Source: an uncultured Thermococci archaeon
Lineage (GTDB): Archaea; Methanobacteriota_B; Thermococci; Methanofastidiosales; B48-G16
Direction of reading: 5' to 3'
Assembly (NCBI GenBank): GCA_964595645.1
Contig: CAZQQT010000001.1
Coordinates: forward strand, 160,001 to 224,000
DNA length: 64,000 bases
In this document: one piece after another, positions 7,416 through 46,400 of the stretch
How the letters are laid out: each line of letters starts with the position of its first letter
Numbering within the stretch: position 1 is the stretch's first letter
Program-made: the position numbers and the translations under genes
Notes under the pieces: generated by a model
Told to the model about the DNA's origin: nothing
Databases searched by the model: none
Seen by the model: only the letters and a program-made list of their open reading frames with translations

Positions 7416-8210
7416 TTATCGAGGAGTATAGTGCCGCTTCAACCATTTACAGAGTCCGTCGAGACCGGGAAACATGACGCGCTCGTTGATATTTGCTTGA
7501 TCCAGTTTATCCCGTACCTCCCACATGAGGGGCTTAGGAATGATTACCTTTTTGCAAAGTTCAGGGTGTTGGGCGAGGATCTCGTCGAGTAACACCGTAG
7601 GATCAGCGATCATAGAGTGCAACGCGTACTGATTCACAATACGTTCGTCCATGGACGGCGGCTCGAAGAACAGTATGAATGGGTCATCAGCAATCGAGTC
7701 GAGTTCCTGAAGTGACGTAACAATATCCGAAAGCATCTCCACGGTGAAGACGTTGGCACCTTCCTCTTGTAGTTTCTTCTTGAACTTCTTCGGAAGCATC
7801 CGATGGACTTCGACAAAGTCTACACACCACACTGCTCCATTCACTTCGTGCTCCGTAATTTCAACAGTAGCGAAATGCATCGCGGTAAAAGGAGAGTACG
7901 TCCAGTCCAGCAGTCGTGTGGGCAAACCGTGTTGCTGTGCCAGTGTCAACCATTTCCACGTGCTGTACTGCTTCGAGTCCTCAACTCTCGCGTACTTGAT
8001 AAAATTCCGCAGGAGATGGAACTCCAGTTTTGGATAGTCACCACCGAGCTGCATGAGTGACGTTTTTAGGTCCTGCCGTTTATCAGGCAATCCTCTGAAG
8101 GCATAGTTGGATCGGTACCGTTGGATGTCCTCCTGCCACGAGTTCGCGTACAGCTCCTCGATTAACTGGGGCCACGAGGTTACGGTGACCTCTTTCATTA
8201 CCTGACTCAT
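7416..8210 (-). CDS. FRG domain protein
   Basis: AFRG, LAQQHGLPTRLLDWTYSP, RIVNQ, MFPGLDG. Confidence 0.9.
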   Translation of the reverse strand: MSQVMKEVTVTSWPQLIEELYANSWQEDIQRYRSNYAFRGLPDKRQDLKTSLMQLGGDYPKLEFHLLRNFIKYARVEDSKQYSTWKWLTLAQQHGLPTRLLDWTYSPFTAMHFATVEITEHEVNGAVWCVDFVEVHRMLPKKFKKKLQEEGANVFTVEMLSDIVTSLQELDSIADDPFILFFEPPSMDERIVNQYALHSMIADPTVLLDEILAQHPELCKKVIIPKPLMWEVRDKLDQANINERVMFPGLDGLCKWLKRHYTPR

Positions 8211-8304: not shown

Positions 8305-8574
8305 ATGAACCTGCGAAAGAATGAAAAGAAGGAACTCAAAGAGCACGGTTACTCACAAAAACAGATTCAGGAGCTTAGGGAGACATCAATGACTTTAAAA
8401 GAGCTCAAACACGAGCTCAAGGACATCTACAACGAACCTCTTTCTCATATGGATCAGACGGATAGGATGGTCGCTCCGTGTTCCCACTGTCGGCAACATA
8501 CCGTCTTTCGGAAGATTGAGTGTGAGGCGTTCTCTGACTATTTTTGTAGTCGTTGCGGAGAAATTAAGCGGTAG
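8305..8574 (+). CDS. Hypothetical protein with C-terminal zinc ribbon
   Basis: CSHC...CSRCGE; AAGGAG SD before ATG 8305. Confidence 0.6.
   Translation: MNLRKNEKKELKEHGYSQKQIQELRETSMTLKELKHELKDIYNEPLSHMDQTDRMVAPCSHCRQHTVFRKIECEAFSDYFCSRCGEIKR
8510..8570 (+). repeat. Direct repeat copy 1 (attL-like), 61 bp, 3' end of the Zn-ribbon gene
   Basis: ggaagattgagtgtgaggcgttctctgactatttttgtagtcgttgcggagaaattaagcg; 60/61 identical to 9321-9381. Confidence 0.95.
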
Positions 8575-8578
8575 AGGA

Positions 8579-9031
8579 TCAATGGTTTTCTTCAGGATTT
8601 ATAATCTCAAAATATTTTTCGGCTACATTACACAGTTTCTTGTCAGCACATACAACTATCGGTTTAAACCTTTCAATATCATCAACAGCTGCTAGTTGCA
8701 AAGAATCAAGTGTTCTTACATTATCCTTTAAAATGAAATCGAGGCTTTTCTTAAAGTGTATTTCATTAAGTTCAATGATAATGTACCTTTTTATGACGTC
8801 TGAATAAAATTTGGACAGCACTATGTCCAATTCAGTAGATGATATTTTTCTTTCATTTTTCTTTCTTACAAAAGCAGATGTCGTTTCTATAATTGTCAGG
8901 TTAGAAATGATGATAACGCTATTTTTTCCTTTTATTATTTTATCAACAATTTTTGAGCCTTTTTCCTCATGGTATCGCTTAATAAGAGCTGAGGTATCAA
9001 AAAAGTAGAATTCTAAATTCTCAGCATTCAT
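8579..9031 (-). CDS. vapC: VapC PIN-domain toxin
   Basis: FFDTSALIKRYHEE, RTLDSLQLAA, CADKKL. Confidence 0.9.
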   Translation of the reverse strand: MNAENLEFYFFDTSALIKRYHEEKGSKIVDKIIKGKNSVIIISNLTIIETTSAFVRKKNERKISSTELDIVLSKFYSDVIKRYIIIELNEIHFKKSLDFILKDNVRTLDSLQLAAVDDIERFKPIVVCADKKLCNVAEKYFEIINPEENH

Positions 9032-9234
9032 GTTCTTTTATTCCTTTCTTTCACGATTTCTTCTGCCATTTCTGTATCTATTTTTGAGAGTATTTTCCTT
9101 ACTTTCTCTATATCTTCATCCTTTGCCATTTTTTTTATGTATTCTAACAGAGGACTCTCCTTTGGTTTTTTCAGTAAAGTTTCTATTTCTTCTCTCGACA
9201 CAGTGTATTTTTTGTGTTTTTTAGTGAGGTCCAT
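9028..9234 (-). CDS. Putative antitoxin (VapB-like)
   Basis: 68 aa, ATGA overlap with toxin, C-terminal VRKILSKI...EEIVKER; GGTGA SD. Confidence 0.7.
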   Translation of the reverse strand: MDLTKKHKKYTVSREEIETLLKKPKESPLLEYIKKMAKDEDIEKVRKILSKIDTEMAEEIVKERNKRT

Positions 9235-9258
9235 TTTTTTCACCGCTTCATATCTTTT

Positions 9259-9287
9259 ACACACAAATGTTTTTTAATGTTGTGTGT
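9259..9287 (-). promoter_or_regulatory. TA promoter with inverted repeat ACACACAA-N13-TTGTGTGT straddling a TATA-like element
   Basis: Perfect 8-bp arms about 25-53 bp upstream of the antitoxin ATG. Confidence 0.55.
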
Positions 9288-9320
9288 GTGGAAAAATTGC
9301 TCTGAGAAAAAAAATATCTA

Positions 9321-9381
9321 GGAAGAGTGAGTGTGAGGCGTTCTCTGACTATTTTTGTAGTCGTTGCGGAGAAATTAAGCG
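9321..9381 (+). repeat. Direct repeat copy 2 (attR-like), followed by TTAA giving an alternative stop
   Basis: 60/61 identity to 8510-8570. Confidence 0.95.
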
Positions 9382-9433
9382 TTAATTACCCTTTTAAGAT
9401 ATTTCACATATTAAAAAAGAAAAAAAGATAATC

Positions 9434-9667
9434 TCAAAGTTTTAATACTAAGTCTCCTTTCTTTACTTTACCAGGCGTTTTTATCATTATTGATCCTTCG
9501 CCACGTTTTGCTTTCGTTACTTTGTCACTAGCTTTCATAATTTCTGCTTCGAATTCCATATCACCGATTTTCAGCTTGTCTCCTTCCTTAAAATCTACCA
9601 TCACATCGATTCCAGCCATACCTTTATCTGAAAAATACGTGTGAACTTCTCCTACTTTCGTTGCCAT
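9434..9667 (-). CDS. Small beta-barrel protein (translation-factor-like / U32 C-terminal-like)
   Basis: KVGEVHTYF...GDKLKI...VKKGDLV pattern. Confidence 0.6.
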   Translation of the reverse strand: MATKVGEVHTYFSDKGMAGIDVMVDFKEGDKLKIGDMEFEAEIMKASDKVTKAKRGEGSIMIKTPGKVKKGDLVLKL

Positions 9668-9897
9668 TTATTTCACCATATCTTTATTTACCCTTGGATT
9701 TATATAGCTTTGCTTTATCAAATTATGATGCAACTAGGTACATGTATCCCTAGTAATCTATCTTCTTATAATACCTCGGGCATTGCACTACTCATGCATG
9801 AACACTACATTAGATATGTTGTGGGAACTGAAACCTTTTTAAGGTACACCATAGAGTAAAACATGGTACGTAGATTATAGAGCAAAACGTGGTGTAA

Positions 9898-45970: not shown

Positions 45971-46400
45971 CTATAGTTCTACTCGTGGATCAAGCCATTT
46001 ATAGGAAATGTCAACCAGAAGGTTTGAAAGGAGAATGATAATTGATAATACAAGGGAGACCCCCATAACAGAGAAATAATCTCTTTTGAAAGCGGCCATG
46101 ACAAAATACTGCCCCAATCCAGGCCAAGAAAATACTCTTTCGATGATAGGCAAAGTAACTCCCATCAAAAATGCAATTCTCAATCCAAGAACTGTTGTAA
46201 TAGGAAGCATTGCATTTTTCAGTGCATGTTTGTAAATTACCACCCTCTCTTTTAATCCTTTCGCCCGAGCTGTCTTTATATACTCTTCCTTCAAGATATT
46301 AAGCATTGAGGAACGTATCAGTCGTGTGAGGTAGCCTACAGTCCCCAGTGCCAATGCTAAGGTGGGAAGTATCATATGTTTAAGATAGTCGAGATAATAA
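45971..46400 (-). pseudogene. DppB/OppB ABC permease, 3' fragment only
   Basis: EAA motif YIKTARAKGLKERVVIYKHALKNA, WPGLG, LDPRV; N-terminal half and partner genes absent. Confidence 0.75.

Follow-up and report, generated by a model that had tools for sequence, protein, structure and literature searches.

A toxin-antitoxin operon bracketed by a 64-bp duplication of a neighbouring gene end in an uncultured Thermococci archaeon

Toxin-antitoxin modules have often been noted to spread between genomes without a mobility gene of their own, and toxin-antitoxin loci stabilise chromosomal segments by penalising their loss. Integron gene cassettes frequently carry toxin-antitoxin pairs; like the insert described here they are small promoter-proximal units without their own recombinase, whereas the repeat at our locus belongs to the coding part of the gene next to it. 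Archaeal integrons are the subject of a preprint (10.1101/2022.02.06.479319). Phages and islands that enter the 3' ends of tRNA or protein genes by means of a tyrosine integrase resemble our locus in that direct repeats bound the insert and the duplicated 3' end restores the target; in contrast to them, the insert has no integrase, the genome has no matching att site elsewhere, and the repeats differ in sequence and length from locus to locus. In archaeal genetics, the 'pop-in/pop-out' procedure sets an insert between two copies of a homologous stretch by one crossover, and recombination of the copies removes it again; laboratory constructs of this kind carry hundreds of bases of homology, as opposed to 64 bp here.

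[quoted passage not shown] In their study of such insertions in bacteria, Furuta, Abe and Kobayashi (2010; PMC2853133) required repeats of more than 30 bp that duplicate the target, an insert of less than 20 kb containing no mobile element, a repeat that is not multi-copy, an empty site in a relative, and the presence of R and M genes. [quoted passage not shown] No archaeal case passed their screen, and DNA breakage by the cargo was suggested as the common cause (PMC2853133).

The locus analysed here lies in a stretch of 64,000 nucleotides, hereafter the window, from an uncultured archaeon of the Thermococci. It shares with these insertions a small addiction-type unit of deviant GC content, a genome-unique repeat from a set of variable length and the lack of any mobility gene; the differences are that the host is an archaeon and not a bacterium, and that an antitoxin and a PIN RNase stand in the place of the R and M genes. 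An empty site was found at one sister locus (C7), the relatives of the window site having a single copy followed by other cargo. Because its cargo is not a restriction-modification system, we class the locus as a variant of the insertion with long target duplication rather than as a member of the group in its original definition. A literature search returned no report tying long target duplication to toxin-antitoxin cargo, and nothing specific on flanking or target duplications of toxin-antitoxin modules.

The duplicated gene end and the inserted operon

A repeat search of the window delimited a 64-nt direct repeat on the forward strand, copy A at 8510..8573 and copy B at 9321..9384, with 62/64 identity and a spacing of 811 nt. 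The initial annotation had reported near-identical repeats at the 3' end of a gene, 60/61 over 8510-8570 and 9321-9381; blastn returned the same 61 nt at 98.4%, and the observation is confirmed for the longer repeat. Copy A comprises the last 21 codons of a zinc-ribbon gene and the first two bases of its TAG stop codon. One mismatch (8516 T / 9327 G) changes Ile to Ser in the frame of this gene, the other (8571 G / 9382 T) gives CGG or CGT, Arg in both. The base after the repeat differs as well (TAG against TAA), and both copies end validly, as had been proposed. Beyond this point and on the other side similarity breaks off sharply, and the 400-nt surroundings of copies A and B have no further sequence in common. 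The 64-mer is present exactly twice in the whole 1.97-Mb genome, and the 54-nt exact match within it appears to be far above chance expectation in 2 Mb.

The target gene (8305..8574, forward strand) encodes a zinc-ribbon protein of 89 aa (CxxC...CxxC). Copy A keeps the gene whole, in agreement with the proposal that the supply of a duplicate 3' end had left it intact. The protein gave a weak sub-threshold match to DUF7879 in Pfam and no match in NCBIfam, and its homologues number only two among 5.8 billion proteins, with 92% and 76% identity. All three sequences agree almost completely over the last 20 residues. Copy A retains the Ile common to all three orthologues; the Ser, which is the sole nonsynonymous difference, falls at this invariant residue in copy B, an orphan 3' gene end that has no upstream coding region and ends in TAA. 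Copy B has a host-like GC content of 44%, in contrast to its AT-rich surroundings. In the best explanation, which taken as a whole we hold to be just on the probable side, copy B would be a functionless leftover and the gene would end, intact, in copy A.

The segment between the copies (8574..9320) measures 747 bp, is foreign in composition (30.3% GC against 43.2% for the genome) and contains a toxin-antitoxin operon with its promoter region only. ORF and Pfam inspection found no integrase, transposase, other mobile element or remnant of another gene in it, which bears out the earlier description of an AT-rich antitoxin-vapC pair with its promoter and no recombinase. The repeat search of the window found no inverted repeats at the ends of the insert. 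A transposon, an insertion sequence or a MITE was therefore rejected on the lack of terminal inverted repeats and on the size of the duplication, which is 64 bp at this locus and ranges from 66 to 311 bp at its sister loci. An integron cassette was rejected likewise: no integron integrase adjoins the locus and the repeat has no attC-like hairpin, as each single strand of each copy folded no better than shuffled sequences did (z -0.3 to -0.8).

The predicted toxin gene (8579..9031, reverse strand) converges with the zinc-ribbon gene, their stop codons being 4 nt apart. It encodes a 150-aa VapC-type PIN protein (Pfam PF01850, 30.8 bits for a cut-off of 23.6, 5.1e-07) in whose translation the acidic residues D12, E49, D109 and D129 can be read. 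Its 115 homologues include NCBI-named VapC toxins of haloarchaea (40-44% identity), and there are closer VapC homologues with 67-82% identity; a PDB sequence search gave no match, and the viral contigs searched held no relative. The candidate antitoxin gene (9028..9234, reverse strand, 68 aa) starts at an ATG at 9234, and its stop codon overlaps the toxin start (ATGA). The open reading frame extends to a GTG at 9264, and the start was set by alignment to a 68-aa homologue of genome G004. The candidate matched no family in Pfam or NCBIfam, including known antitoxin and DNA-binding families. A conserved promoter-like element, TTAAAAAACATTTGT (9262..9276, reverse strand), precedes the antitoxin ATG by 28-42 nt and, judged by its sequence, may act as a TATA/BRE-like element. 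The module has in common with type II VapBC systems a small upstream gene, here that of the antitoxin candidate, overlapping a PIN toxin gene by 4 nt, AT-richness, a patchy distribution and toxin homologues annotated as VapC; it differs from them in that its antitoxin candidate fits no described antitoxin family.

A cassette 73% identical to positions 8589-9285 of the window occupies an unrelated context on contig C35 of G004, the homology stopping at the promoter-like element. As this cassette runs from promoter to toxin stop, the unit that moves is the two-gene pair. The G004 cassette is AT-rich too (32% GC), and the genomes of genus g2 have 36-38% GC; composition is therefore uninformative as to which way the transfer went.

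The integrated order was compared with public contigs. An 817-bp unitig of the cassette had a depth of 32.4 in one run of the source microbial-mat samples (flanks, 34.2-34.6) and of 77.2 in a second (flanks, 67.3-68.5), and the 54-nt identical core of the repeat stood at about twice the flank depth in both. The two mismatches cannot be phased in unitigs of k=31, so that the evidence for the integrated order comes from the genome assembly together with one contig of an independent study (X4). This contig, from a strain of roughly 95% identity, continues without a break from the cassette across copy B to the flank on the right (9214-9467) and thus has the same junction. The public contigs, in which rare variants are dropped, showed neither a circle junction nor an excision product, and stretches lacking cover in X3 and X4 were given no weight.

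The site in relatives and sister loci across the genome

Relatives were expected, on the initial proposal, to present either an empty site or different cargo. The second part of this expectation was borne out. In the congeneric genome G001, a HepT/MNT pair directly follows the orthologous zinc-ribbon gene, and in an 88%-identical strain (run X3, a contig of 1323 bp) the gene is followed by unrelated sequence, different from both the cassette and the G001 cargo; each has a single copy of the repeat. The 27 nt after the TAG in the X3 strain (a 30-nt loose contig end) match no sequence searched. An empty site, in which the sequence now to the right of copy B would directly follow the zinc-ribbon gene, was not found among the genomes and metagenomes scanned, nor was a donor state in which the VapC cassette abuts the gene without duplication. 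Searches of metagenomes and genomes with a protein pattern or a degenerate DNA pattern of the C-terminus yielded no new zinc-ribbon allele.

Comparison of the whole genome with itself revealed 12 sharp-edged direct-repeat sets, 8 of which enclose toxin-antitoxin modules (content confirmed by Pfam or by sequence); this census is an association and not a mechanism, as a duplication made de novo at insertion gives the same final structure. The eight loci use eight unrelated repeats of 64-311 bp with 84-100% identity. In the seven besides the window locus the repeats measure 66-311 bp, and each derives from the end or the start of the adjacent gene. At C7, three relatives have contiguous flanks and a single instance of that part of the repeat which is conserved. 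A gap of 287 bp separates copy A from the left-hand gene at this locus, which a simple model does not predict. At C8, a cassette with 86% identity abuts the same gene start in G001 with no second copy, and the two repeat copies in the genome studied here, G000, are 100% identical. Taken together, these two observations make the C8 duplication younger than the adjacency of cassette and gene, as expected if a piece consisting of the cassette and the gene end had popped in.

The 127-bp repeat at C4a was considered as a sister case and rejected: it is not a clean duplication but what is left, in a tandem toxin-antitoxin array, of a second MNT-HEPN module that has had its core replaced. Among 29 PIN loci sampled in relatives, only one or two are bracketed, a low count that is weak evidence because contigs of fragmented assemblies often end at repeats of this kind.

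Origin of the bracketed arrangement

We favour, at slightly better than even chances, a scenario in which a horizontally acquired vapBC-type operon was inserted by host recombination with a 64-bp target duplication and is kept by addiction. The incoming DNA would be a small circle made of the cassette and ~64 bp of the end of the zinc-ribbon gene, possibly originating in a strain where cassette and gene were already adjacent. A single crossover between the circle and the chromosomal gene, catalysed by the host homologous recombination machinery (a Campbell-type 'pop-in'), would then integrate it, and a cassette lying between two copies of the shared stretch is the necessary outcome of such a crossover. 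Inserts bracketed by repeats are normally lost again through recombination between the repeats. From the layout, we agree with the initial proposal that recombination at this locus would yield an 811-bp circle and leave the host gene intact. Loss of the cassette would deprive the cell of the labile antitoxin while the stable VapC poisons it; toxin-antitoxin inserts would thus persist, and be over-represented among bracketed inserts, because the cells that lose them are poisoned.

An assembly artefact, in which the chromosomal site would be empty and a separate 811-bp circle or a contig of another organism would have been threaded in via the shared 54-mer, is extremely improbable. Formally, either phasing fits the graph of k=31 unitigs from these runs, but two diverged copies exist, cassette and flanks stand at 1:1 with the core at ~2x in both runs, and the X4 contig independently links cassette, copy B and right flank; moreover, an 811-bp circle would have no replication function, and the copies at the sister loci, diverged by up to 16%, are not collapsed repeats. 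The initial annotation had read the repeats as att-like and the insert as a non-autonomous cassette mobilised in trans, or as the residue of a larger element; the two 64-mers would then be attL and attR, and in the first case the recombinase would be encoded elsewhere. The layout does resemble that of elements entering a gene 3' end and restoring the gene, and the genome has three tyrosine recombinase (Phage_integrase) genes, at C3:65172, C3:101110 and C6:87209, two of them of ~410 aa, one of these two adjoining tRNA-Asn; at C6, a repeat-bracketed toxin-antitoxin pair lies directly beside the tRNA-Asn-adjoining one. We nevertheless judge this reading improbable. The genome-wide search, which included the surroundings of these three genes, returned only the two known copies of the 64-mer, and the repeat has no inverted-repeat or attC-like structure. 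One integrase acting on one att site is inadequate, since the seven other toxin-antitoxin loci have unrelated repeats of very different length. Nothing spoke for a residue left by a larger element with an integrase. The 747-bp insert contains no remnant of any other gene.

The repeat might instead have been made during insertion, with no prior homology required, either because a linear cassette fragment was captured where a break had long staggered ends, or because replication switched template at the stop codon, copied the cassette and returned to the chromosome 64 bp upstream. Such a de novo long target duplication would account for the sharp edges, for repeat lengths that vary from 64 to 311 bp among loci and for an insert that is almost exactly a promoter-to-stop unit, and the original description for restriction-modification systems leaves the mechanism open (PMC2853133). 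We regard it as plausible but rather unlikely: an RNase cargo is unable to cut DNA for its own break, the enrichment in toxin-antitoxin modules is unexplained unless survivorship through addiction is added, and the state of C8, adjacency in G001 with no duplicate and identical copies in G000, fits homologous re-insertion better. In a last scenario, allelic replacement by homology-facilitated illegitimate recombination, DNA of a related strain that already carried the gene with the cassette would have joined by homology on the left and illegitimately, inside the resident gene, on the right, the last 64 bp of the resident becoming copy B. The stretch past the stop codon is indeed a variable junction in three lineages, and the right edge of the repeat is the stop codon, where donor and recipient would diverge. 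This mechanism demands that at every bracketed locus the illegitimate joint should happen to fall upstream of the point of divergence and no more than a few hundred bases from it, and it only shifts the primary insertion to the donor; both points make it highly improbable.

The nature of the cargo also bears on the cause suggested for the bacterial insertions. Because the toxins (PIN, HepT) are RNases, breakage of DNA by the cargo cannot explain these cases, and with that explanation removed host recombination combined with selection against loss is indicated. More speculatively, and at a probability that we put below even, a toxin-antitoxin pair with a few dozen bases of host homology might be a complete recombinase-free mobile element, which would enter by one host crossover, be held since its excision kills, and leave as a small circle that re-enters genomes with the same homology. 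If so, this would be a general route for the mobility of toxin-antitoxin and other defence genes in archaea and bacteria, and survivorship rather than DNA cutting would account for the long target duplications around restriction-modification systems. The window locus and its seven sister loci, all in one nearly complete archaeal genome, offer a concrete, testable anatomy for the spread of toxin-antitoxin modules: the cargo, a duplicated target stretch that is long and varies in length, and the lack of a recombinase. Annotators and island-finding programs that take such repeats for att sites would infer integrases that do not exist.

It is also worth noting that the right-hand neighbour of the site, a 77-aa gene (9434..9667, reverse strand), lies within a second AT-rich stretch (9385-9890). 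The genome has a second copy of this gene at G000:C12:5244-5465, with 49% identity, and the window copy is closer to homologues of other genera (58-64%) than to that of G001 (46%). The gene in the window is an extra paralogue and was probably also acquired.

A VapC cassette between two copies of a gene end

A direct repeat lies at window positions 8510-8573 (copy A) and 9321-9384 (copy B), with 62/64 matching positions and a spacing of 811 nt. The repeat reported in the initial annotation is real: blastn recovered its 61-nt core, which is the 60/61 match counted there, its edges are abrupt on both sides with nothing else common to the neighbourhoods of the two copies, and exactly two copies are present in the whole 1.97-Mb genome (14 contigs, with the window at C1:160001-224000). 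Its GC content is 43.8% (genome, 43.2%). Copy A constitutes the last 21 codons of a gene (8305-8574) encoding an 89-aa zinc-ribbon protein (CxxC...CxxC), which is rare, as a search of 5.8 billion proteins returned two homologues only; copy B is not preceded by coding sequence. In copy B, the orphan, G at 9327 stands for the T at 8516 and puts Ser where all three known orthologues share Ile, while the 8571 G/9382 T difference is synonymous; the stop codons differ in their third base (TAG in copy A, TAA in copy B). Upstream of the zinc-ribbon gene lies a divergent gene for an FRG-domain protein (7416-8210; Pfam 2e-23), in place of which the congeneric genome G001 has a LysE-type gene.

The 747-bp insert has a GC content of 30.3%, versus 43.2% for the genome. 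On its minus strand it encodes a 150-aa PIN protein (8579-9031; Pfam PIN above cut-off), with 115 homologues that include NCBI-named VapC toxins of haloarchaea (40-44% identity), and, upstream of it, a 68-aa ORF (9028-9234), the candidate antitoxin; the end of this ORF and the start of the toxin gene overlap in ATGA. Positions 9262-9276 form a promoter-like element, and the stop codons of the toxin and zinc-ribbon genes are 4 nt apart. Recombinase genes, inverted terminal repeats and further notable ORFs are absent from the insert; ORF, Pfam and repeat scans agree with the original description of an AT-rich antitoxin-vapC pair and its promoter. The pair is an ordinary module of the VapBC type, its antitoxin unclassified and its toxin function predicted. 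Within the PIN gene, an 11-bp unit, ATTTTTCTTTC, is present twice in tandem (8844-8866). One unit is missing from a 258-bp contig of a near-identical strain in another sequencing run, X3, a loss that would shift the toxin's reading frame and may reflect inactivation of the toxin by slippage, at the very low coverage of depth 2.

An assembly artefact, in which an empty site and a separate 811-bp circle had been merged, is very improbable. The public k=31 contigs of the two runs that are the probable source of the genome end at the repeat, as expected of a two-copy sequence (a 24.5-kb contig stops at 8546), and the k=31 graph, which cannot phase the two mismatches, would on its own also allow a circle beside an empty site. 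The depths in the two runs argue against a circle, however, being 1:1 for cassette and flanks (32.4 and 77.2 for the 817-bp unitig spanning 8541-9357, against 34.2-34.6 and 67.3-68.5 for the flanks), as does the lack of a replication function on 811 bp; the identical 54-nt repeat core has depths of 57.9 and 141. In addition, a contig of 253 bp from another study (run X4, strain ∼95% identical) joins the cassette, copy B and the right flank (9214-9467).

Repeat-bracketed toxin-antitoxin modules in the genome

The genome was compared with itself for direct repeats 0.2-20 kb apart, and CRISPR arrays, paralogous genes and internal protein repeats were removed. Twelve sharp-edged direct-repeat sets were obtained, eight of which enclose toxin-antitoxin modules, each with a different repeat sequence derived from the adjoining gene. 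This genome-wide pattern bears on how toxin-antitoxin modules move. Besides the window locus (64 bp, 97%; antitoxin and VapC), two short brackets are found on contigs C7 and C8. The first (C7:45992-47162; L026 2493-3663; copies at 45992 and 47097, 66 bp, 92%) holds a PIN gene and an AF2212-like antitoxin, and its flanks are contiguous in G001 and in the relatives G003 and G004. Its copy B contains the 3' terminus of the gene to the right, and 287 bp separate its copy A from the gene to the left, a distance left unexplained by a simple model of duplication. The second (C8:115267-116320; L025 2768-3821; copies at 115267 and 116223) is a perfect 98-bp repeat around a PIN_2 toxin and a 75-aa antitoxin. 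This repeat comprises codons 1-15 of a gene for a secreted protein and the 52 nt that precede them; the gene is complete downstream of the operon and present as a truncated start upstream.

The longer repeats are located at C2:83630-84867 (copies at 83630 and 84734, 134 bp, 84%; MNT and HepT, assigned from sequence), C6:85028-86713 (85028 and 86518, 196 bp, 89%; DUF2281 and PIN, adjoining a tyrosine recombinase gene and tRNA-Asn), C7:60063-63627 (60063 and 63393, 235 bp, 97%; the repeat is a whole RHH gene and the 3.1-kb block contains PIN), C4:183040-185929 (183040 and 185619, 311 bp, 99%; the repeat is a promoter and antitoxin gene, around a 2.3-kb block with several toxin-antitoxin pairs) and C4 130577/131897 (127 bp, 98%; HepT and MNT). 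Identities of 84-99% in these five point to events of different ages. The last was rejected as a clean sister case, being instead what is left of a second MNT-HEPN module, with HepT and MNT in place of its core; the locus (C4:129832-132023, repeats of 127/187 bp) is a remnant of a tandem MNT-HEPN array. A repeat-bracketed insert lacking a toxin-antitoxin pair was seen at C10:68093-69606, where a perfect 148-bp repeat, encoding a lipoprotein signal peptide and a Thr/Pro-rich linker, forms the common 5' ends of two adjacent genes with unrelated bodies.

Among 29 PIN loci sampled in relatives, one is bracketed and perhaps a second, a count of little weight because fragmented assemblies break at such repeats. 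The sole clear case, in the same-order relative G027 (contig C11; L069 1199-2486), is a PIN gene inside a perfect (100%) 215-bp direct repeat.

Origin of the repeats

The initial reading of an att-like cassette holds as regards insertion without a recombinase, but not as regards the att site. Eight unrelated repeats of 64-311 bp are not explicable by a single att site of a single integrase; a genome-wide search for the repeat, suggested at the outset, returned the two copies only, neither of them adjoining one of the three genes for tyrosine recombinases, and the folding of the 64-mer is unlike that of an attC site. Site-specific integration is thus unlikely. The recombinase at C6:86861-88229 (L028 4862-6230; 410 aa, C-terminal zinc ribbon, adjoining tRNA-Asn) probably marks an integrated element, because it is absent at that tRNA in relatives.

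The window locus resembles 'insertion with long target duplication', defined by genome comparison for bacterial restriction-modification systems (Furuta et al. 2010, PMC2853133): repeats exceed 30 bp, vary in length and often cover a gene's 3' end, no mobile element is present and the GC content deviates. In contrast to the published cargo, restriction-modification in bacteria, the cargo here is toxin-antitoxin in an archaeon; no archaeal case passed the screen of Furuta et al. (2010). The insertion scar is known for bacterial restriction-modification systems; in the literature searched, no paper joins long target duplication with toxin-antitoxin cargo, nor offers anything specific otherwise. 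DNA breakage by the cargo, suggested as a common cause in the same study (PMC2853133), is not applicable here because the toxins (PIN and HepT) are predicted RNases.

We favour, at slightly better than an even chance, a single crossover of a small circle through host homologous recombination. The circle would carry the cassette and a short stretch from the target gene, and would enter the chromosomal gene by a Campbell-type crossover; loss through recombination between the repeats would then be penalised by the toxin, which we propose as the reason why toxin-antitoxin modules dominate repeat-bracketed inserts. That a piece of cassette plus gene end can pre-exist unduplicated is supported by the C8 locus: in G001 (contig C99) its cassette (86% identity) abuts the same gene start without a second copy, whereas the two copies in the source genome are identical. 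De novo duplication at insertion, by staggered breaks or template switching, is a serious rival, if a doubtful one. Homology-facilitated illegitimate replacement appears less likely still than an att site.

The same interval in related genomes

Other cargo at this site, which the initial annotation had suggested seeking in relatives, does occur. In G001, a HepT and MNT pair begins 17 nt after the orthologue's stop, with more genes before the FAD-oxidoreductase gene common to both genomes; on its contig C31 (L018 997-1778), the pair is followed by two short ORFs and then a gene with a metallo-beta-lactamase fold. The end of the zinc-ribbon gene is not duplicated in G001. In the X3 strain (zinc-ribbon protein 92% identical), unrelated sequence follows immediately past the stop. 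As the G001 and X3 sequences differ there, the junction is variable in three lineages, and the interval from the zinc-ribbon to the FAD-oxidoreductase gene is a variable island. A true empty site or donor state for the window locus was not found among the relatives compared, and the public contigs, which drop rare variants, showed no circle junction. From promoter element to toxin stop (8589-9285), the VapC cassette shares 73% nucleotide identity with a stretch between unrelated genes in G004 (contig C35), which belongs to a different genus; the mobile unit is the antitoxin-toxin two-gene unit.

A degenerate fragment of the cassette (L019 1750-1832), in which the promoter directly joins the opening codons of the toxin and the antitoxin is missing, lies ∼1 kb upstream of the G004 cassette (compared over L019 2729-3003). 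Cassette-derived repeats therefore surround a 247-aa minus-strand gene (L019 1837-2580), which we take from its sequence to resemble a pyrF/OMP-decarboxylase gene.

To the right of copy B, a second AT-rich stretch (9385-9890; GC 34%) contains a 77-aa gene with a weak biotin/lipoyl-like match. This gene is an extra paralogue, another being present at C12:5244-5465, and its product is 58-64% identical to other-genus homologues versus 46% to the congener's; this suggests that it was probably likewise acquired, and separately.
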